Shown here in pieces: positions 40,126 to 58,540 of a stretch of DNA of 64,000 bases (positions are counted from its first letter, which is position 1; every line of letters begins with the position of its first letter). The notes beneath the pieces were generated by a model. The model saw only the letters and a list, made by a program, of their open reading frames with translations, had not been told where the DNA came from and made no database searches. Made by a program: the position numbers and the translations under genes. Where the stretch lies: positions 64,001-128,000 of the forward strand of contig CAWVRN010000002.1 of the NCBI GenBank assembly GCA_963932905.1, written 5' to 3'. This DNA is from an uncultured Bdellovibrio sp. (lineage in GTDB: Bacteria; Bdellovibrionota; Bdellovibrionia; Bdellovibrionales; Bdellovibrionaceae).

Positions 40126-40992
40126 ATGATAATGAATACAGTTGATCTTTTTGGCATGAAATACAAATCAGAAACCTACTTAAGCTTGCAAAAGCTAGTT
40201 CAGTCTATTTTGCCGATTGAATCTAATATCAATATTCATGGATCGCAAGGAACCGGAAAATCAACATGGGCCCAAGTTATTTTGGAAAAGTCGGGTTTGG
40301 CAGAGGCTTACTGTAAAATTGATGTAAAAGAAATCGAGGAAGAAAAGTTTAAAGCGGAATTGGAGTCGTCTAAACATAGACACATTCTTTTAGAAAACGT
40401 AGACTATCTTCATAAAGAAAATCAAGCAGTGTTGGCTCAGTATATCCAAACTCGTTCGCTGCAAGTAAAACCAGTAGTAATTACAACGTCTAAACGCAGT
40501 TTGAGTGATTTGGCTCGTGAGGGCCTACTAAGACAGGATCTGTATTATAAGTTGTCAGTATTTACTATCGGATTACCTGATTTAAAGCAGGTAAAAGAAG
40601 ACATTAGAACTTTTGCTGAATACTATTTGAGAGTTTTTTCTATTAACTATAAGCGCCCCCAGTTGAGTCTATCTAACGAAGCTCTAGTGCGACTAGAGTC
40701 CTTTTTCTGGGTAGGTAATATATTAGAGCTGGAAAACGTTGTAGAGCGAGCCGTGTTGTTGTGTGAAGGCGAAGTTATCAGTGACAAGCATATCCGTTTT
40801 GATGAGTTCCAAAAGTACAACTCATTAGATTTAAGTTTGGGTATGTCGTTATCCGAAGTTGAGCGTCGTTTGATTCTGCAAACTTTAGAGCACACACAGA
40901 ACAACCGCACGAAAGCCGCTCATATTCTTGGTATTAGCATCCGAACTCTTAGAAATAAGATTAACGAATATAGAGAGGCAGGCTTAATATGA
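40126..40992 (+). CDS. Atypical sigma54-activator (bEBP) homologue: AAA+-like domain plus Fis HTH, no GAFTGA
   Basis: GSQGTGKS, LRQDLYYKL, WVGNILELENVVERA, NRTKAAHILGISIRTLRNKI. Confidence 0.8.
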   Translation: MIMNTVDLFGMKYKSETYLSLQKLVQSILPIESNINIHGSQGTGKSTWAQVILEKSGLAEAYCKIDVKEIEEEKFKAELESSKHRHILLENVDYLHKENQAVLAQYIQTRSLQVKPVVITTSKRSLSDLAREGLLRQDLYYKLSVFTIGLPDLKQVKEDIRTFAEYYLRVFSINYKRPQLSLSNEALVRLESFFWVGNILELENVVERAVLLCEGEVISDKHIRFDEFQKYNSLDLSLGMSLSEVERRLILQTLEHTQNNRTKAAHILGISIRTLRNKINEYREAGLI

Positions 40993-47183: not shown

Positions 47184-48290
47184 ATGAAAAAATATGCCGC
47201 TTTGGTCTGTTTAATTCTATTGCCTGTTTTGGGAAAGGCTCAAACTCTTCCGGGTAACGTTGCCTATACACCGGAGCAAATCGTAAACGAAAAAGCGAAT
47301 AAAGTTAATGAGCAGAATCAAATGGGTTCTGGCCCAAACGCCGACTATAGTATATTTAATAATTCTCAATCTTCGCATGGAGTGAATTTCTCGTCAGTTG
47401 GTAAAAGTCAGCAGGTGGGACTTGATTTGCATTCTGAAGCAGAAAACTTGCAGGGGCAGGTTATCACAGAACAAAAAGATGCCGGTATATCGGATCCGAA
47501 GGGGTGTAGCGATCGTGGGGCATTAAGCGAATATCACAACAACATATGCACTGCTTCGGATACGTTGCAGGTTATGGGTATCGAGGCCTTAGAATCGCAA
47601 AGTGTATTTCAAGAGTCGGCAACACAAGCATACCAAACAATGGAAGATACCTCTGCATTTCCTTTAGATGGATCAAATCTTGGAACATTCGCCGCGGATA
47701 CGCATGGCCTGCCTACAAATACGAATGTGCTTTACTCAAGTAATAAACCTTCGATCGAAAGCTTTAATACACTCTACAAATCGTTGGATTCAACGGCGCA
47801 GTACAAGGGATTAAAATACAACACAAAAAATGATTACTTCTATTTAGAAGGAAAAAAATATTCAACGTCCGTATTGTATTCTAAGGATGCAATGCTAAAA
47901 GCTGGAATCAACAAATCACTTACAAATTTCGCGTACGCGATGCTGAATAAAAAATCGATTTCGGCGCAAAATAAAATTACTGCAATTCTGAAGGGTAGAA
48001 AACTTTACGACGGAAAAAAATGGAGTATTATTGGTGTTTCTTCAGATCCCAGTGCTTCGCTGGTAGATGATTCTTCAACCCGGCCAGTGATGACTAGTCC
48101 TGAAAGACCTTCCCAGATTCGATCTGGAGTTGTTGATCTTTCGTCTAGTCTGGTCGAGGACAAGACGCTTTATAAAGACATAAATGGCGTATCGGTAGGA
48201 CTTTCCTCTGATGACATTTTCAAAATGATCAGCAGAAAGTACAGAGAAAAAGATAAATTAGGTTTTTTTCACAACTCTCCAAAAAAATAA
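47184..48290 (+). CDS. Hypothetical secreted protein inserted between fliI and fliJ
   Basis: Signal peptide MKKYAALVCLILLPVLGKA; no flagellar motif recognised. Confidence 0.7.
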   Translation: MKKYAALVCLILLPVLGKAQTLPGNVAYTPEQIVNEKANKVNEQNQMGSGPNADYSIFNNSQSSHGVNFSSVGKSQQVGLDLHSEAENLQGQVITEQKDAGISDPKGCSDRGALSEYHNNICTASDTLQVMGIEALESQSVFQESATQAYQTMEDTSAFPLDGSNLGTFAADTHGLPTNTNVLYSSNKPSIESFNTLYKSLDSTAQYKGLKYNTKNDYFYLEGKKYSTSVLYSKDAMLKAGINKSLTNFAYAMLNKKSISAQNKITAILKGRKLYDGKKWSIIGVSSDPSASLVDDSSTRPVMTSPERPSQIRSGVVDLSSSLVEDKTLYKDINGVSVGLSSDDIFKMISRKYREKDKLGFFHNSPKK

Positions 48291-49657: not shown

Positions 49658-51610
49658 TTGAACGTTCAACCGGTTTCGTTCATGCCGAAGCCAGACGCGA
49701 AAGCGCCGAGCAGCATGAATACACAAGAAAACCGTGTCGACGAAAAAGGATTCAGCAAAGAGCTTGAACGTAGAGTGGATGCCCCAGGGACCAAAAAGCC
49801 GGCGGATAAAAATTCCGATAGGCAGCTAAAGACTCCAGGGGAGAAATCAGAAAAGAAAGAAGTGGTTGCTAAAGACACTTCGGTAGAACAAAACACAGCC
49901 GATAAAAGAGTTGTGGAAAAGAAAGTAAAAAAAGATTCAGACGATAAATCTGAATCCGGTGACGGCAAACTGACAAAAAAGGCGGATACTAAAGAAGAAC
50001 GCCTTAAAAAATTCATGGACTCGTTAGAGAGTGAATTTCAAATACCTCCGACTCGAATAGTGGAGGCATTCAGTGAGCTCAGCCCCGAAGAACTTTCGCT
50101 ACCGGCTGATGAATCCATCGACCGTGTTGTTGGTAAGTTAAATCTAGATGAAGAATCAACTGCCAAGGTTAAAGACCTTTATGGCGATCTGGTTCAGGAT
50201 CTAGAAACTATCGACACCAAGCAGACTGAATCTAAATTCGGAATGGCACCAAGTGTGGCCGCGCTAGGGCTGACTCGCGAGCGTTTTGACAAAGTCAAAA
50301 ATCAGCGTGAAGCCTTGCAGAAATCTTTGGATCAAATGAACCAAAGTTTTTGGCAGCCACAAGTGAATCCACAAATCACGACGCCAATTCAAGGTGATCT
50401 AATTGCTAAAGCGCAATTGGCCTCGAAAGGGCGAAATGGTTTAGATTCTTATCGTGATATTTCTACAGAAAACACGTTGCCTAGTGTGATGGCGGGGCTG
50501 ACTCCAGGCGAATTAGCGATGGATCAGAATCGTGAGTTTATATATGATCCGCGCACAGGCGACATGTATAAAATAGATCCCAATGTGATGGCCTCTAATA
50601 ATGAAGGTGATCAGTCATTCAGCGCCAAAGACGCTGCGATGATGGGCGTCGCAGCCGCTCTCGGAATTTCAAAAATGAAATCAGATGCCGGTAATTTAGA
50701 TGGTACGTCCCCAATGGGTCCGGGTTATGGTATGGAAGCATCAAAAGCTGCAATGCCAATGAACCCTAAGCCAAATCAGCTAGCCAATCTTGAATCTCTA
50801 AGTAGTGCACCGACTGATGTTTCTTCTGCGATGCTAGCTAAATTAGCTAACTCGTCGAATTCATCGGGTAGTGGATCCTCTGACTTTTTCAGCAAAGGCG
50901 GCGGCGGTTCTGAATCTCATAACACTCAGGTTTCTGGAAAGAAAACTGACGGCGATGACATGAAGACCATGCTAGCGGCATCATTAGGTGTGGGAGCCGG
51001 TAATGATTTGAAAGAGTCATCGCTAAATTCTGCGCCAATCATGGTGCCAGGAACAAACGCTCAGGTGACTCAAGAAGCCACTGATCGCAATGTCCAGAAC
51101 GTTATGCAACAAGCTCAATACTTGGTGAAAGCGGGCGGCGGCGAGATGAAGGTAAGAATGACTCCTGAAGGCCTTGGCGAAATTCAACTCAGTGTTGAGT
51201 TAAAAGATGGAAAGGTTCAGTTGCATATGGCTGCTGAAAATAAAGAGACCAAGAAAATGTTAGAATCCAGTCTTTCAGATTTAAGAGAGAGTCTTTCTCA
51301 ACAAAAGATTTCTTTAGAGTCGGTCAAAATTGATACGGTTGCACGCACGAACACAGAAAATCATGCGAACAGTAATAACAGCAATCAATTTGGACAGAAT
51401 CAAAATCAGGAAAACCGCGATACGCGACAGTTCTGGAATCAGTTTCAAGATCAATTCGGTGGTGGACGTCCTGGACGTGAATCCCTAATGGATGGATTAA
51501 AAGTCAAAGGATATGCCGCGAAGAAATCAGAAACAATAGCTCCGGCAACGGAAACTAGTTCAGCTGGTCGTTCGAATGGAAAATCTTCAAGTCTAAATTT
51601 AGTCGCATAA
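49658..51610 (+). CDS. fliK: Flagellar hook-length control protein FliK
   Basis: C-terminal MKVRMTPEGLGEIQL...LRESLSQQ; TTG start after GGAGGA; precedes flgD. Confidence 0.85.
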   Translation: MNVQPVSFMPKPDAKAPSSMNTQENRVDEKGFSKELERRVDAPGTKKPADKNSDRQLKTPGEKSEKKEVVAKDTSVEQNTADKRVVEKKVKKDSDDKSESGDGKLTKKADTKEERLKKFMDSLESEFQIPPTRIVEAFSELSPEELSLPADESIDRVVGKLNLDEESTAKVKDLYGDLVQDLETIDTKQTESKFGMAPSVAALGLTRERFDKVKNQREALQKSLDQMNQSFWQPQVNPQITTPIQGDLIAKAQLASKGRNGLDSYRDISTENTLPSVMAGLTPGELAMDQNREFIYDPRTGDMYKIDPNVMASNNEGDQSFSAKDAAMMGVAAALGISKMKSDAGNLDGTSPMGPGYGMEASKAAMPMNPKPNQLANLESLSSAPTDVSSAMLAKLANSSNSSGSGSSDFFSKGGGGSESHNTQVSGKKTDGDDMKTMLAASLGVGAGNDLKESSLNSAPIMVPGTNAQVTQEATDRNVQNVMQQAQYLVKAGGGEMKVRMTPEGLGEIQLSVELKDGKVQLHMAAENKETKKMLESSLSDLRESLSQQKISLESVKIDTVARTNTENHANSNNSNQFGQNQNQENRDTRQFWNQFQDQFGGGRPGRESLMDGLKVKGYAAKKSETIAPATETSSAGRSNGKSSSLNLVA

Positions 51611-51718: not shown

Positions 51719-52888
51719 ATGACAGTAATGAATACGAAATTGGGTGTTAATCAATTTGGTGCCACTCAGACCAAAGCAACTTCTTCAAATGCTTCGCAGG
51801 CACAACTAACGGACGCTGATTTAAAAAAATTAGGCGGGGACAACGTTGGTGATGTTCTAAATAAAGTTGCGGATCCAAATTGGGTCGATCCTTCTAAGAA
51901 AATGCGTACTGTCGGTAATGATAAATTAGATAAAGATGCGTTCTTTAAACTAATGTTGGCGCAAATGAAGAATCAAGATCCGACGAATCCTTTAAAGTCA
52001 CACGAGATGGCCGCACAGTTAGCCAGCTTCTCGTCACTCGAGCAAATGCAAAATATGAATACAACATTAACTGATCTGAAGAATGGTCAGAAGCCAACTG
52101 AACAGTTTCAGGTGTTGAATTTATTGGGTAAAGGCGTTGCTGGGGATTCGTCTAAAATTCTTCGTAATCCTGGTGATAAGTCTCATGAATTTGTTTTCAA
52201 TTTACCAATGAAAGCGAAAGAAGCGGACATCCGCGTTCGTAATGCTGATGGTGAAGTTGTGAAAACATATAAATTAACAGGGTTGAAAGAAGGCGAGAAT
52301 CGTCTTCCTTGGAATGGCCAAGATGAAAAAGGAAACGCGGTACCTGCTGGTGAATATCAATTCTTCATCGAAGCGAAAAATGATCAAGGACAGAAGATGG
52401 CCATCAAAACAGAATTCGAAGGTCAGATTACCGGCGTGAACTATGCTCCGGAAGGACCAGTGTTGTTAATTGGAAATCAAGCGATCCGTCTACGTGATGT
52501 TAAGAAAATCGTTGATCCTCAGCTGATGAATGCTCCAAGTAAAGCTAACGAAATAAATCCAGAACTTCAAGCGATGCCAGCGGCTCCGCAACCAGGCGCA
52601 GTTCCGGGTGCTCCTCAGCTTCCTCCAGGAATGCCGGGGCTTCCCGCAATGCCAGGTTTATCTATGACTCCGCCAGTAGGCGCCGGTGGGGCTTCCACGG
52701 TACCACCGCAACCGCAAGCACCAGCGGACGGCAAAGGATCAACTCAAGCATCGGCGAATAGCAAAGCCGCTCAACCTAAAAAAGAAGTTCAGGGCGCACC
52801 GCCGGCACCCCAACGAAGCAAGCTTTTAGATCAAGTAGGCTTATCGAGTGAGATGATGGGTAAGATAGCTAAAGAAACTTCAATGTAG
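51719..52888 (+). CDS. flgD: Flagellar hook capping protein FlgD with Pro-rich C-terminal extension
   Basis: LDKDAFFKLMLAQMKNQDPTNP, AQLASFSSLEQM, WNGQDEKGNAVPAGEY. Confidence 0.93.
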   Translation: MTVMNTKLGVNQFGATQTKATSSNASQAQLTDADLKKLGGDNVGDVLNKVADPNWVDPSKKMRTVGNDKLDKDAFFKLMLAQMKNQDPTNPLKSHEMAAQLASFSSLEQMQNMNTTLTDLKNGQKPTEQFQVLNLLGKGVAGDSSKILRNPGDKSHEFVFNLPMKAKEADIRVRNADGEVVKTYKLTGLKEGENRLPWNGQDEKGNAVPAGEYQFFIEAKNDQGQKMAIKTEFEGQITGVNYAPEGPVLLIGNQAIRLRDVKKIVDPQLMNAPSKANEINPELQAMPAAPQPGAVPGAPQLPPGMPGLPAMPGLSMTPPVGAGGASTVPPQPQAPADGKGSTQASANSKAAQPKKEVQGAPPAPQRSKLLDQVGLSSEMMGKIAKETSM

Positions 52889-52896
52889 GAATTTAA

Positions 52897-53385
52897 ATGA
52901 ACCACTGGAAACCATGTAGCAGTTGTAAGAAAGAAATCGGATTTAATACGAAATATTACGAGTGCAGTGTTTCCACATGTACGGGTTCGCGAACTGGATA
53001 TGTTTTTTGTTCTGTTCCATGCTGGGAACGTCACCTTCCTGGCGCTAAACATCGCGATGCCGCTGCCATAGAAAAAAAATCTCCTACCCAGGCCGAATTT
53101 GAAAAGTCACAAGAGACCGTGGCCCCAGTTGGTGGTCAACGGCGAATTATTGCTTCATCAGCACCATTGTCCTCTACCGCCGCCACCAAGAAAGACGAAA
53201 ATGAAATCTTAGTCGTTGTTTCTAAAGTAAAAGCTTATATCAAATCGCAAGCCGACATGAATGTTTCTGACGAGATAATGGACATTCTTTCTCATCGAAT
53301 CCGTTATTTCTGCGACCAGGCGATTAAACACGCTCAAGCTGACGGAAGAAAAACGGTTCAAGACAAAGATATGAAAGTTAGCTGA
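52897..53385 (+). CDS. Bacterial histone-fold protein with N-terminal ZZ-type zinc finger
   Basis: C7/C10/C23/C28/C38/C42/H46/H52 zinc-finger pattern; C-terminal EILVVVSKVKAYIK...MNVSDEIMDILS...AQADGRKTVQDKD resembles the Bdellovibrio histone, including the RKTVxxxD clamp. Confidence 0.85.
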   Translation: MNHWKPCSSCKKEIGFNTKYYECSVSTCTGSRTGYVFCSVPCWERHLPGAKHRDAAAIEKKSPTQAEFEKSQETVAPVGGQRRIIASSAPLSSTAATKKDENEILVVVSKVKAYIKSQADMNVSDEIMDILSHRIRYFCDQAIKHAQADGRKTVQDKDMKVS

Positions 53386-53483: not shown

Positions 53484-55433
53484 TTGGAATTACTGAGTGC
53501 CATTTTATCTGAGAAAAGTGATTTAGGGCCACAAGGGCGTGCCAAATGGTTATCGCGTTTGCTGTTCTGGTTCCAGCGTTCGCGTTCTTCTGATGAAAAG
53601 GAAATCAATTGGGAAAAGATCTACACCACTCGTTTAAAGTTTATCATTGTTCAGCTCAGAGCCAATCCTGAATGGCGGGATAATGTCGAGTCTAATTTAC
53701 GGCATGTCTTGATTGATCTGCTGACGTCACATCAATTGTCTAGCGCAGGGTTGCCGGACGAAACTAGTTTTTTTCAAGATTTTTTTCATCGTGTTCAAGA
53801 CAAGATTCTTCCGGATGGACTTTTCCAAAATGACCTAGCGTCCATACTTAAGCATACTTTTGATTCCGAGAATGAAATAGTGATTATTGATGCCATCGAC
53901 GAGGAAACTATTAGTGAGTTCATTGTCGAAGTATTTCGAGATAAGTCAGACCACAAGTTAATGAGGTCAGCCTTGATTCAGTCGTTAATACGAACCAGTA
54001 TCCAACTAGCCAATAGCTCTTTGTTGTTGTCGAATAAGTTGTTTAAGCGCGGATTTTCAAATTGGGAAAATGCAGAACGTATTTCAAAAAGTATTTTGTT
54101 TGATTTTGCCAACGCAGGTGAATCGATAAATGTTGTTCAATTGTGTGAATCTATTAATGAACTAGAAAAAGTCACCAACATTATCCAGAGCAATTTGGGT
54201 AAGATGGGTGTTGAGATTGAGGTCGTCTATACACTTCAAATACAACTTAAACGTATAAAGCGTTTAAAATTATTAACTAACTTTTTAGACGAAAAACTTT
54301 CAACGGCATTGGCTAGTCGACTATTTTTCTCTGAATTGGTGAAGGATGTCTACGAAAGCCGCGGCATCAAAGGATTTCTGGTTACCAATCTAGAGTTACT
54401 AGCAAAACGTGTAGTGCAGGGTAACTCAGCCGTGGGTGAACACTATATCGCAAAAACCTGGGATGATGTCAGGGCTATGTTTCTGTCGGCTTTGGGTGGA
54501 GGTATGGTTACCTCAATGACCGTATTCATCAAACATGTACTTTCGCTTATAGGCCTAACCGGATTTTTAAAAGGCGCCGCGGATGCCGTGAACTATTCTT
54601 GCAGTTTCTTGGCGATTCAACTAGCGGGTTTCACGTTAGCAACTAAACAGCCTTCGACAACGGCCGCGTTCTTGGCCAAAACGTTAGAGACCTCGACTCG
54701 CGAAAGTGTCCTTTCTATATTTTATATTTTGCGTGCTCAAATTGTTGCCGTTATCGGTAATGTTTCTGCTGTGGTTCCAATTTGTTTTTTTCTTTCATTG
54801 GGATTCCAAAAAATGGGACATCCCATGATGAGTTTAGAAGAGGCTCGTTCGGTGTTTGCTTCTACCCACTTGCTGGGGCCAACAGTTGTATTTGCCTGCT
54901 TCACCGGGGTGTTGCTGTTCCTATCCAGTCTAGTTGCAGGCTGGTTTGAAAATTTTTGTATCGTCACTAGCTTGCCAACACGTATTCGTCACAACAGTAA
55001 ATTATCCGCTTTAATAGGAAAAAAAGCGGCGTTGAATTTTTCTGAATTTATCAAAGAAAATAGTAACGCATTGGCGGCTAATATTTCTCTAGGTTTATTA
55101 CTTGGTTTAGTTCCTCAATTGCTAAAGTTTCTAAGCATACCGCTAGAAGCCCGTCACGTAACTCTGGCCTCGGGCGCTTTTGCATCGTCATTACCCATTA
55201 TGCTAGATCAAACCGAATATTCTGTTTTTGAATTTGCAAATGCAATAAGCGGGCTCGTGTTGATCGGTTTTTGTAATTTGATTGTCAGCTTCTCACTGTC
55301 CTTAACACTGGCTCTGGCAGCGTCTGAAGGGTCACGTGGTTCAGTGATGAAATTATTAAGATGGACAGGAAAGACGGTGATTCGTCGGCCGTATATGCTG
55401 ATTTATCCGGAAAGAAGAAAGAAAAAGAGCTAG
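53484..55433 (+). CDS. Gcr/'SpecificRecomb'-family multi-pass membrane protein
   Basis: GEHYIA, SALGGG, NYSCSF, FTLATKQPSTTA, Q..AVIGN, AGWFEN, NISLG, EARHVTLASG, NLIVSFSL. Confidence 0.75.
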   Translation: MELLSAILSEKSDLGPQGRAKWLSRLLFWFQRSRSSDEKEINWEKIYTTRLKFIIVQLRANPEWRDNVESNLRHVLIDLLTSHQLSSAGLPDETSFFQDFFHRVQDKILPDGLFQNDLASILKHTFDSENEIVIIDAIDEETISEFIVEVFRDKSDHKLMRSALIQSLIRTSIQLANSSLLLSNKLFKRGFSNWENAERISKSILFDFANAGESINVVQLCESINELEKVTNIIQSNLGKMGVEIEVVYTLQIQLKRIKRLKLLTNFLDEKLSTALASRLFFSELVKDVYESRGIKGFLVTNLELLAKRVVQGNSAVGEHYIAKTWDDVRAMFLSALGGGMVTSMTVFIKHVLSLIGLTGFLKGAADAVNYSCSFLAIQLAGFTLATKQPSTTAAFLAKTLETSTRESVLSIFYILRAQIVAVIGNVSAVVPICFFLSLGFQKMGHPMMSLEEARSVFASTHLLGPTVVFACFTGVLLFLSSLVAGWFENFCIVTSLPTRIRHNSKLSALIGKKAALNFSEFIKENSNALAANISLGLLLGLVPQLLKFLSIPLEARHVTLASGAFASSLPIMLDQTEYSVFEFANAISGLVLIGFCNLIVSFSLSLTLALAASEGSRGSVMKLLRWTGKTVIRRPYMLIYPERRKKKS

Positions 55434-55460
55434 GCTAAAAACCCAGCTCTTTCGAATGAA

Positions 55461-56300
55461 TTATTTTTGAACGATGTTTCTTAAACCTGAAGAACCATTC
55501 GCGCCATAAACTGCTTTAGCAATTCCCGCGCATTGAGCTGCGACCGCCGCGATAGATTGGGCTCCGATTTTACCAAACACTATTTGTCCCACAGTGAAGT
55601 CTGGATCGTCATCTAAATGGCAATCAGCTACGACTGGGTATTGATTTACATCTAATTTTGGATTTTTAATTGCTGCAGAGCCGTTGTTTTTGTAGGCCGC
55701 CGTAGCGATTAGTTTACATTGGTTCATCGCTTCTAAGAAGTCAGACGTCGCGATTTGACCAACAGCAATTTGTCCTGCCGTGAAATCAGGGTCATCGTCA
55801 ATTTCGCACGTCGCCTCTACGAAGTAAGTTGGTTTTTGTATTACCGTGGCATTTGAAATTCCAAACGAGTACTGAGTCGAACCACTTGATTTGGCGATTG
55901 CCTCACAATCCGCTAAAATGGCACGAATTGAACTGCCCTTCAGCGTACCACCACTCATTTGCCCTGGTGTAAAATCAGGGTCGTCATCGATTTCACATTT
56001 TGCTGACATAATCACACGGTTATTTACAGGAGGTGGTGGGTAGTTAGGCTCATTGGGTGGGTAGGTTTCATTTAAAGAGTCGTTTAGGTTTCTTTCTGCC
56101 GCTGTCAGGCGTCTTTTAATTTGCTGCAATTTGCGAGTGATGTCTTGGACACTTCCGCCGCGGCCTAAATCAGAAATGGTACGAGTTAGCTCTTGTCGAG
56201 CCGCTGAAACTTGTTCTGTACCTTTTTGAACAAGAAAGTCGTCAGCCGCCATCGCGCTGAAAGCGACTAGGTAGCTGGATAAAATAAGTGATTTTTTCAT
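55461..56300 (-). CDS. Secreted protein with three C(E/H)(I/L)DDDPDFTxGQ repeats
   Basis: Start at ATG 56300 (MKKSLILSS...AMA signal peptide); three repeats of about 60 aa, each with two Cys. Confidence 0.75.
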   Translation of the reverse strand: MKKSLILSSYLVAFSAMAADDFLVQKGTEQVSAARQELTRTISDLGRGGSVQDITRKLQQIKRRLTAAERNLNDSLNETYPPNEPNYPPPPVNNRVIMSAKCEIDDDPDFTPGQMSGGTLKGSSIRAILADCEAIAKSSGSTQYSFGISNATVIQKPTYFVEATCEIDDDPDFTAGQIAVGQIATSDFLEAMNQCKLIATAAYKNNGSAAIKNPKLDVNQYPVVADCHLDDDPDFTVGQIVFGKIGAQSIAAVAAQCAGIAKAVYGANGSSGLRNIVQK

Positions 56301-56358
56301 TGGTTCCCCCATAATTTGGGTTCGAAATGACTCCGAACCGCATTCGGTTTGGAGAGTT

Positions 56359-56374
56359 TGCAAGTGGCAGACCA
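56359..56374 (-). promoter_or_regulatory. Putative sigma54 promoter
   Basis: Minus strand TGGTCTGCCACTTGCA (GG-N10-GC, TTGCA). Confidence 0.65.
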
Positions 56375-56647
56375 ATCAAATTTCGTCGGCAAATTCAAAT
56401 TGCCCCCGCACGATGCGCCGTACTTGAACATGAATGAAATTATGAAATCTGGTCAATGAGTTGTTGATATGAAATCGACGAAAAAATACTTAGCAGTTTC
56501 TAAAAGTAGGGGATTACCTTTAGAAACTGCACCTAAAGCCAGTGAAATTTTGCCACCAGTTGGCCCTATTTTAAGTTTTAGACTAGATTTTAAAGATAAT
56601 TCTTGCTGGACTTGAAAAGCAGTCTCCAAATCTGTGATGATGAATGT

Positions 56648-57079
56648 ATGGACGTAAAGAAAATGAATACTTTAGACACCGCAATAAAGGGGACAGGCTT
56701 CCCTGCCGGTGGTATTTCTCAAGGTACTCAGGTTCCGTCTACAGGACCTTCGTTCAAAGATACGTTGAATGGATTGTCCACTGTTGACTTGAAGAAAGTG
56801 GCTAATGATGCCGGTCTAGGCGAGAAGGGAATTAAGTTCTCGAATCACGCGATCGAGCGCATGCAGTCTAGGGGAATTTCATTTAAGGCGGACGATATGA
56901 CCAAATTAAATGAAGCCGTAGATCGCGCCGCAAGTAAAGGCAGCAAAGATTCACTGATCTTGATGAATGATTCAGCTTTGATCGTGAGTGTGAAAAACAG
57001 AACCGTTGTCACAGTGATGGATAAAACCGCACTGAAAGAAAATGTGTTCACGAATATCGACAGCACGATTGTGATGTAG
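56648..57079 (+). CDS. Flagellar operon protein (TIGR02530-like)
   Basis: IKFSNHAIERMQSRGI...KGSKDSLIL...ALIVSVKNRTVVTVMD...NVFTNIDS. Confidence 0.88.
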   Translation: MDVKKMNTLDTAIKGTGFPAGGISQGTQVPSTGPSFKDTLNGLSTVDLKKVANDAGLGEKGIKFSNHAIERMQSRGISFKADDMTKLNEAVDRAASKGSKDSLILMNDSALIVSVKNRTVVTVMDKTALKENVFTNIDSTIVM

Positions 57080-57256
57080 GTCTTCGGACAAAGTAAGTAC
57101 TAAACCTTAAATTCTCGAATAGAATTTAGGGATGTAAAAAACAGGGCTGGTCCTCTTTGAGGGGGCCCTCCAAAACTCCCAGAGCCGTTTGCTCAGGGAA
57201 ATTAATTTGGTCCAAGCAGGATGCTTGGGTCATACGAACATGACATGGAGGTCATA

Positions 57257-58540
57257 ATGGGTATTCTATCGTCTCTCTACACAGGCGTATCCGGTTTAAC
57301 AGCACAAGGTGAAGCGTTAGGGGTAATTGGTGATAACATCGCCAACGCCAACACTATCGGTTTCAAAGCCTCTCGTGCAGAATTTCAAGATATCATTTCT
57401 AAGAACTTAAAAGGTATCTTAGGTGGTAACCAGATCGGTCGCGGGGTTAAAATCGGCGCGGTAAATCCAATCTTGGTACAAGGTAACGTGGATGCGACTG
57501 AAAAAGTAACTGACTTAGCAATTTCTGGCGACGGTTACTATAAAGTAAAAGGTAGCGATGGCGAATCATTCACTCGTGATGGTTCATTCCACTTTGATAG
57601 AGAAGGTTACCTAGTTACAAACGATAATCAAAAAGTTCAAGGTTTCATGACGGATGAAAAAGGTAACATCCTAAATAAAATGGCTGATATCAAATTCCCT
57701 CGTGCATTGATCCCTGCAAAAGGATCGACAGAACTGAAGCTAGATCTGAATTTAGATTCACGTGTTGAGCCTACTAAAAAATTCAACATTGACGATCCTT
57801 ACTCAACATCACACTACTCAACGGGTGTAGAGATGTACGACTCACAAGGTAACAAACATTTAGTTCAGTTCTTCTTTAATAAAGTGGCTGATCGTAAGTG
57901 GGAATATAAAGGTCTTTGTGATGGTAAAGAAGTTACCGGTGGTGAAGAAGGAAAAATGGCTCAAGTTGTTGCGGGTACATTAGACTTCACAGTAGATGGA
58001 AAATTAGAAAAACAGGAAGTAACAGATTCATCATTCAACTTCATGGGTGGAGCTTTACAAAATCAAAAAATTAAAATGAATTTCGGTGACGATATCGCAA
58101 GTGGCGGTAAAGGTTTAGATGGAACTAAACAATACGGTAAAGGTTCAGATCTAATCTCATGGCACCAAGACGGTGCGGGCGCAGGTACAATCACTGGTTT
58201 ATCGTTCAATGACGAAGGTGTGTTGACGGCGGTTTATTCGAATGGTCAAGCGGCTGACTTAGCTCAGATTGCTTTAGCAAAATTCGAAAATCCGGAAGCG
58301 TTATTCAAAGTCGGTAACAATCGTTTGAAAGAATCTAGAGATTCTGGTGGTCCATCAATGGGTGCGCCAGGCGCAGCGGGTCGCGGTAAAATTTACGCGA
58401 AATCGTTAGAGCGCTCAACGGTCGACTTAGCGACAGAGTTCGTAAACATGATTCAAAATCAACGTGGTTTCCAAGCCAATGCGAAGACAATCACGACAAC
58501 AGATGAATTACTAAACGAAATCATCCAGTTGAAAAGATAA
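57257..58540 (+). CDS. flgE: Flagellar hook protein FlgE
   Basis: SLYTGVSGL...NIANANTIGFK, TDLAISGDG, TRDGSF, YDSQG, LERSTVDLATEFVNMI.QRGFQANAK. Start at ATG 57257 after GGAGGT. Confidence 0.96.
   Translation: MGILSSLYTGVSGLTAQGEALGVIGDNIANANTIGFKASRAEFQDIISKNLKGILGGNQIGRGVKIGAVNPILVQGNVDATEKVTDLAISGDGYYKVKGSDGESFTRDGSFHFDREGYLVTNDNQKVQGFMTDEKGNILNKMADIKFPRALIPAKGSTELKLDLNLDSRVEPTKKFNIDDPYSTSHYSTGVEMYDSQGNKHLVQFFFNKVADRKWEYKGLCDGKEVTGGEEGKMAQVVAGTLDFTVDGKLEKQEVTDSSFNFMGGALQNQKIKMNFGDDIASGGKGLDGTKQYGKGSDLISWHQDGAGAGTITGLSFNDEGVLTAVYSNGQAADLAQIALAKFENPEALFKVGNNRLKESRDSGGPSMGAPGAAGRGKIYAKSLERSTVDLATEFVNMIQNQRGFQANAKTITTTDELLNEIIQLKR

Follow-up and report, generated by a model that had tools for sequence, protein, structure and literature searches.

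One genus of Bdellovibrionaceae has moved the gene for a ZZ histone, a bacterial histone fused to an N-terminal zinc module, into its flagellar hook operon. We describe this gene in a 64,000-nucleotide stretch of DNA from an uncultured Bdellovibrio sp. (GenBank assembly GCA_963932905.1, contig CAWVRN010000002.1, positions 64,001 to 128,000 of the forward strand). The whole stretch is called the window here, and positions are those of the window. The protein belongs to the ZZ histone family published by Schwab et al. (2024, Nat Commun, PMC11390915). It adds nothing to the description of that family, from which it differs in genomic position only; the move into the hook operon is the new point, and it is a modest observation. 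We think it quite likely that the gene is the counterpart of Bd3044 of B. bacteriovorus, that it was relocated once to a site between flgD and the flgE-proximal gene, and that it is transcribed with fliK-flgD.

Relocation into the hook operon

The ZZ-histone gene sits inside a co-directional flagellar cluster of about 17 kb. The cluster begins with a sigma-54-activator-like gene, followed by flgB, flgC, fliE, fliF, fliG, fliH, fliI and a 368-amino-acid (aa) gene without a Pfam match. It continues with fliJ, a gene with an MgtE_N domain, fliK, flgD, the ZZ histone, a PF10136 gene, a convergent minus-strand open reading frame (ORF), FlagPut and flgE (Table 1). An initial reading of the sequence, the first-pass annotation, had placed the histone start 8 nucleotides (nt) past the flgD stop on the same strand. 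The coordinates agree with this: the flgD stop codon TAG occupies 52886-52888 and the histone ATG begins at 52897, leaving a gap of 8 nt, and the upstream gene is FlgD by Pfam. The Shine-Dalgarno-like AGGA of the histone gene overlaps the flgD stop.

Is this arrangement typical of ZZ histones? Using window proteins as tblastn queries, we collected 80 related loci. flgD lay directly upstream of the histone in 8 of them, namely the eight that are most closely related (65-90% identity). Of the other 72 loci, 66 had 1 kb or more of sequence upstream, and no flagellar gene was present there. We also surveyed 121 genomes of the window's family. Each of the other 9 genus genomes carried a ZZ histone, with flgD directly upstream in 9/9 (10/10 with the window). 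Among loci of the family's other genera, 0/20 had flgD within 1.5 kb of the ZZ histone. The two counts overlap, eight of the nine genus genomes being the same records as the eight flgD-adjacent loci (L001-L008). The annotation's claim that the gene is embedded in a flagellar operon hence holds for the window and for all ten sampled genomes of its genus, but not as a property of the family.

The nine flgD-adjacent rows formed one clade in a quick IQ-TREE run on 81 rows (Shimodaira-Hasegawa-like approximate likelihood ratio test, 99; stem length, 0.59). In five of five genomes that carry the ZZ histone elsewhere, fliK-flgD-FlagPut-flgE was contiguous, with FlagPut straight after flgD. Outside the genus, the neighbours of the histone were unrelated genes: ClpB, MGS and PGA_cap adjoin it in B. 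bacteriovorus, a subtilase in 20 loci, and GlnRS was also found. Within the genus its place is after flgD and ahead of the genes proximal to flgE. Because the flgD adjacency is genus-wide, belongs to a single clade and is matched by contiguous hook genes elsewhere, the data point to a single relocation of the ZZ histone into the hook operon in the ancestor of the window's genus.

In L095 and L102, both genomes of the genus, the order is flgD-ZZ histone-FlagPut-flgE with nothing else inserted. PF10136 follows the histone in 7 of the 10 genus genomes, including the window; it is absent in 2, and in 1 the site is hidden by a contig end. From these two patterns we infer that the histone was inserted first and PF10136 later. 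Recent horizontal transfer of the histone gene was considered and rejected. Its GC content is 0.436 and its third-position GC content 0.374, its neighbours are similar, and its clade is nested in the same family; we read this as a move within the lineage and not an import.

The junction with flgD is tight throughout the clade. Eight of the nine loci, the window included, have a gap of 8 nt, and the most distant one has a gap of 17 nt; a purine-rich Shine-Dalgarno-like motif precedes the histone in 9/9 flgD-adjacent loci. Neither the flgD-histone gap nor the sequence just past the histone held a plus-strand terminator-like site, and the next hairpin downstream is at 55423-55453. The histone gene thus shares its strand with flgD, follows it at a short distance and is separated from it by no terminator, as expected of a member of the flagellar operon. 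On this basis, co-transcription of the ZZ histone with flgD appears probable.

Could the adjacency instead be neutral hitch-hiking, in which the gene landed in an insertion-tolerant gap, uses its own promoter in the 3' end of flgD and has no flagellar role? This is possible, if rather unlikely. The same gap also took up PF10136 in seven of the ten genomes, the convergent ORF and, in L001, one more ORF, and the family's neighbours elsewhere are unrelated genes. However, the 8-17 nt junction with its ribosome-binding motif is kept in 9/9 loci down to 65% protein identity, the histone stands alone and cleanly between flgD and FlagPut-flgE in two genus genomes, and no terminator-like site lies ahead of it. 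Moreover, the timing of bd3044 in strain HD100 reportedly matches that of the flagellar assembly genes (10.1101/2025.09.24.678257).

Several points nevertheless weigh against placing the gene functionally in the hook operon, or against parts of that reading. The flagellar link is missing from most of the ZZ-histone family, where the neighbours are unrelated housekeeping genes; what the family does at its core must therefore have another explanation. PF10136 interrupts the downstream operon in 7/10 genus genomes, and a convergent gene does so as well in the window; hence the site downstream of flgD could simply tolerate insertions. There may be a promoter inside the flgD coding region. A sigma-70-type scan was uninformative, with 24 sites against 22.2 expected from shuffled sequence. 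Expression of the HD100 ZZ histone is reported to be very low and the protein to be of low abundance (PMC11390915), which argues against a role in bulk chromatin. Finally, the window protein scored 21.2 bits against Pfam CBFD_NFYB_HMF (PF00808), just under the cut-off of 21.4. The homology to histones stands despite this score, as shown by the HBb matches in phmmer and Foldseek that are given below.

Two further promoter scans used consensus sequences. For sigma-54 there were 22 matches against 28.3 expected, none of them near the ZZ histone. For sigma-28, where the lineage's own consensus may differ, the window had 41 matches against 22.9 expected; the only match within flgD (52153-52179) had 3 mismatches and was not convincing.

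Architecture of the ZZ histone

The possibility that the ORF is spurious was ruled out by its 466 homologues, which were found among 494 candidate proteins at E <= 1e-3, far more than chance would give. In the species-representative genome set, 362 of 484 matched stretches encode a relative. The B. bacteriovorus loci (L061 and L075) are 49-51% identical to the window protein over residues 4-160. As described in PMC11390915, ZZ histones include Bd3044 of strain HD100 and Haliangium ochraceum D0LYE7 and share an N-terminal module with C4 and C2H2 sites, then a linker and, at the C terminus, a histone fold of the bacterial dimer type. The window protein is built in the same way. The first-pass annotation was correct in calling it a zinc-finger-fused histone of the Bd3044 type, a type that is in print under the name of ZZ histones.

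Hocher et al. (2023, PMC10627809) describe Bd3044 as a longer, less conserved second histone, present in 37% of Bdellovibrionota genomes, and a second histone is reported in only 50% of the proteomes with a ZZ histone (PMC11390915). The ZZ histone is not alone in the window genome: a separate 64-aa HBb-like histone is also encoded there (G000:C1:245380-245556; L082 1498-1692) and shares 46% identity with ZZ-histone residues 102-160. Two contigs under other labels, one of a Streptomyces griseus metagenome-assembled genome (MAG; L010) and one of a Deltaproteobacteria MAG (L026), carry ZZ histones that fall within the Bdellovibrionota rows of the tree; mistakes in binning or labelling are the probable cause, and not gene transfer. 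No paper among those searched connects ZZ histones, or the histones of Bdellovibrio, with flgD or a flagellar operon, and the word "flagell" has 0 occurrences in the main text of PMC11390915.

The C-terminal histone fold predicted earlier was borne out both by sequence and by structure prediction. A phmmer search against PDB sequences matched residues 103-160 to HBb/Bd0055 chains (8cmp and 8fvx) with an E value of 3.5e-11. The AlphaFold model of the whole protein had a mean predicted local distance difference test score (pLDDT) of 78, and Foldseek matched its histone fold to 9ezz, 8fvx, 9f0e and 8cmp with TM scores of 0.89-0.95, root-mean-square deviations of 0.9-1.2 Å and 46-47% identity. The GRKTVQDKD segment near the C terminus corresponds to residues 150-158.

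How well are the DNA contacts of HBb kept? Molecular dynamics (MD) simulations in PMC11317129 rank N22, R57, S9, T53, T8, S24, K10, K12, K52 and K16 as the ten main DNA-contact residues, and HBb numbering is converted to that of the window protein by adding 100, an offset taken from the PDB-sequence alignment; the residue types agree with the numbering in that article. Eight of the ten residues are identical in the window protein (N122, S109, T153, S124, K110, K112, K152 and K116). The other two are changed: R57 is replaced conservatively by K157, and T8 by V108. The KT motif, the RD clamp (R151-D158) and D149 are retained, and S109, K112, N122, R151, K152, T153 and D158 are invariant in 107/107 homologues. 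At the dimer interface, L131 and I135 are hydrophobic and conserved and position 138 is variable. Judged from these residues, the histone domain should be able to bind DNA, and by homology with HBb, whose type of dimer pairs the second helices in antiparallel fashion, the protein would be expected to dimerise and bind DNA.

The likeness to HBb/Bd0055, the bacterial dimer histone, hence covers the fold, 8/10 of the DNA-contact residues and the RD clamp. HBb differs in having neither zinc module nor linker and in being highly abundant, whereas the HD100 ZZ histone is reported to be of low abundance (PMC11390915). Compared with other ZZ histones, those of the window's genus have T23 changed to V and R57 to K at HBb-equivalent positions, and their clade has a long stem branch, the 0.59 noted above.

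Between the two domains lies a linker that had been described as flexible, and we agree: pLDDT is below 50 at residues 76-81 and 83-99, and among 107 homologues the linker can be as short as 27 or as long as 68 residues. One motif, [KR]-R-I-[IV], is nearly invariant amid this variation, with R83 in 106/107 sequences, I84 in 99/107 and R or K at position 82 in 106/107.

The N-terminal Cys6His2 set noticed at first pass is genuine and conserved. C7, C10, C23, C28, C38, C42, H46 and H52 were all invariant in 31/31 aligned diverse homologues; in the 107-sequence alignment seven of the eight ligands were invariant and C38 was present in at least 90%. Following the pairing given by Schwab et al. (PMC11390915), C7, C10, C38 and C42 would form the C4 site and C23, C28, H46 and H52 the C2H2 site, and the module of the window protein would be expected to bind zinc.

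Is the module a ZZ domain? The resemblance is weak: it fails by sequence and agrees by fold. The window protein had no match to Pfam ZZ, its only Pfam match at E <= 0.1 being CBFD_NFYB_HMF, and a profile built from 74 N-terminal modules gave 0 matches to PDB sequences at E <= 10. Modelled alone, the module had a pLDDT of 84.6 and a predicted TM score (pTM) of 0.67. Its best-ranked Foldseek matches were the ZZ domains of p62, KCMF1, BIG, HERC2, PRT1 and p300, the best being p62 (6miu; E 0.059, probability 0.98, 29% identity); none reached E <= 1e-3. Eukaryotic ZZ domains occupied the top ranks in both fold searches of the module. Structurally, the module of the window protein is ZZ-domain-like, as in the published family. 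From these models we accept it as a ZZ-like cross-brace module and not as a member of the Pfam ZZ family.

The module is also basic. Across 74 sequences its net charge averaged +5.2 (range, +2 to +8), and the histone domain was near neutral (mean, +0.7). K11, K12, R32 and R53 make its surface both basic and highly conserved. Such a module is compatible with a second contact to nucleic acid.

The first-pass annotation had suggested a reader of peptide N termini. If so, the module would read a peptide N terminus or a histone tail, as in p62, p300, HERC2 or ZZZ3, and so direct the histone to a partner protein. ZZ domains crystallised with N-terminal peptides (p62, KCMF1, BIG, HERC2 and PRT1) are indeed the nearest solved folds, and stand-alone modules of 69-80 aa exist, which indicates that the zinc module is an autonomous unit. 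Eukaryotic ZZ fingers (p62/SQSTM1, ZZZ3, HERC2, p300, Nbr1 and KCMF1) share with it a small cross-braced fold with two zinc sites. However, they have no sequence match to it by Pfam or PDB profile, the window-type module is basic and not acidic, and the residues of the eukaryotic pocket are reported not to be conserved in ZZ histones (PMC11390915). The charge and the pocket together argue against a reader role, which we consider very improbable.

We are equally doubtful that the protein is a specific regulator of late or flagellar genes, and not a general nucleoid protein, with the zinc module providing extra or sequence-selective binding to nucleic acid. The low reported abundance in HD100 (PMC11390915), the basic and conserved surface of the module and the location of the gene within a flagellar operon in one genus would all suit a regulator. 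Against this, histones of the HBb type touch only the backbone of DNA (PMC11317129), and the flagellar context is lineage-specific.

Zinc modules without a histone domain also occur. Six proteins of 69-80 aa (P0121-P0126) end just past the module and stop before the [KR]-R-I-[IV] motif; two of the six come from long contigs (92 kb and 180 kb). Stand-alone modules in the family survey (G025, G055, G076, G092 and G017) belonged mainly to one other genus, g20. No fusion of the module to other domains was found among 5 candidate longer proteins, which is weak evidence. In the ESM Atlas, the clusters nearest to residues 1-75 were unnamed proteins of 69-78 aa at 0.86-0.87, under the 0.9 level, and serve as leads only.

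Features around the gene

Table 1. Positions of the ZZ-histone gene, its parts and selected neighbours in the window
Feature	Position	Strand	Remarks
ZZ-histone gene	52897..53385	+	162 aa plus stop codon; ATG start; from ORF list and homologues
N-terminal zinc module	52897..53085	+	residues 1-63
Disordered linker	53086..53202	+	residues 64-102; from pLDDT and length variation
Linker motif [KR]-R-I-[IV], here RRII	53140..53151	+	residues 82-85; from conservation in 107 homologues
HBb-like histone fold, short third helix	53203..53382	+	residues 103-162; from PDB sequence and Foldseek matches
Histone helices in model			helix 1, 108-119; helix 2, 125-148; helix 3, 156-158
Shine-Dalgarno-like AGGA (52887-52890) and 8-nt gap	52887..52896	+	from reading of the sequence
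Sigma-54-activator-like gene	40126..40992	+	288 aa
ORF between fliI and fliJ	47184..48290	+	368 aa
fliK (hook-length control protein)	49658..51610	+	Pfam Flg_hook 5.6e-19
flgD (hook cap protein)	51719..52888	+	Pfam FlgD 6e-20, FlgD_ig 2.9e-15; directly upstream of ZZ histone
PF10136 ("SpecificRecomb") gene	53484..55433	+	Pfam 1e-129; second insertion, downstream of histone
Hairpin between PF10136 and convergent ORF	55423..55453	.	terminator-like on minus strand; possible two-way terminator
Convergent ORF	55461..56375	-	304 aa
Small flagellar operon protein PF12611 ("FlagPut")	56603..57079	+	Pfam 4.9e-11; normally right after flgD
flgE (hook protein)	57221..58540	+	Pfam FlgE_D2 2.5e-21

The activator-like protein that heads the flgB-flgC-fliE-fliF cluster has a partial AAA+ domain and a Fis-type helix-turn-helix and lacks a receiver domain. 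The 368-aa ORF has an N terminus resembling a signal peptide and does not look flagellar. The window FlgD is 389 aa long, with a long Pro/Ala/Gly-rich C-terminal extension; flgD frames in five other genomes are of 334-357 aa. The PF10136 product (649 aa) has many hydrophobic stretches, and the Pfam name may not reflect its function. The convergent ORF has no Pfam match and contains three repeats of about 70 aa, each with C-x-[IL]-DDDPDFT-x-GQ; relatives of it were found in L001 and L004 and not in L002.

Timing and possible role

When would a ZZ histone encoded in the hook operon be made? In B. bacteriovorus the gene lies away from flagellar genes. For strain HD100, a 2025 preprint (10.1101/2025.09.24.678257) reports a peak specific to T260, the stage of division and exit, for bd3044, bd0055 and HU-beta, and the bd3044 peak is reported to coincide with the flagellar assembly genes. 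On this evidence, the relocation would put the gene under an operon whose timing it already held elsewhere.

We propose that the HBb-type fold would most likely dimerise and contact the DNA backbone without sequence preference, while the disordered linker of 27-68 residues would tether it to a basic module that folds on its own and has two zinc sites. A single move in the ancestor of the genus would have brought the gene to its place after flgD and ahead of the small flagellar operon gene upstream of flgE. Here it would most likely be transcribed with fliK-flgD and perhaps be translationally coupled. The dose of ZZ histone would then follow the expression of the hook-basal-body genes, that is, the late stage of the predatory cycle in which flagellated progeny are made. 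The first-pass annotation had connected the gene with nucleoid remodelling during the formation of swimming progeny; such a functional link would be coherent and would agree with the HD100 timing.

One may go further and suppose that capture by the hook operon couples ZZ-histone synthesis to flagellar assembly, so that the protein acts as a low-copy, late nucleoid factor that helps to make the chromosome of the motile progeny compact and transcriptionally quiet, with the zinc module and the [KR]-R-I-[IV] motif supplying a second contact, to nucleic acid or to a partner, that HBb lacks. We offer this tentatively and think it unlikely as a whole. If it is true, the relocation hard-wired a timing that B. 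bacteriovorus reaches in trans, with bd3044 peaking at T260 together with the flagellar assembly genes.

Bacterial histones are a recent discovery, and a single relocation followed by retention in the hook operon amounts to a natural experiment. The position of the gene suggests that the ZZ histone is needed late, during progeny maturation, and the genus-wide insertion of single origin makes this timing hypothesis testable.
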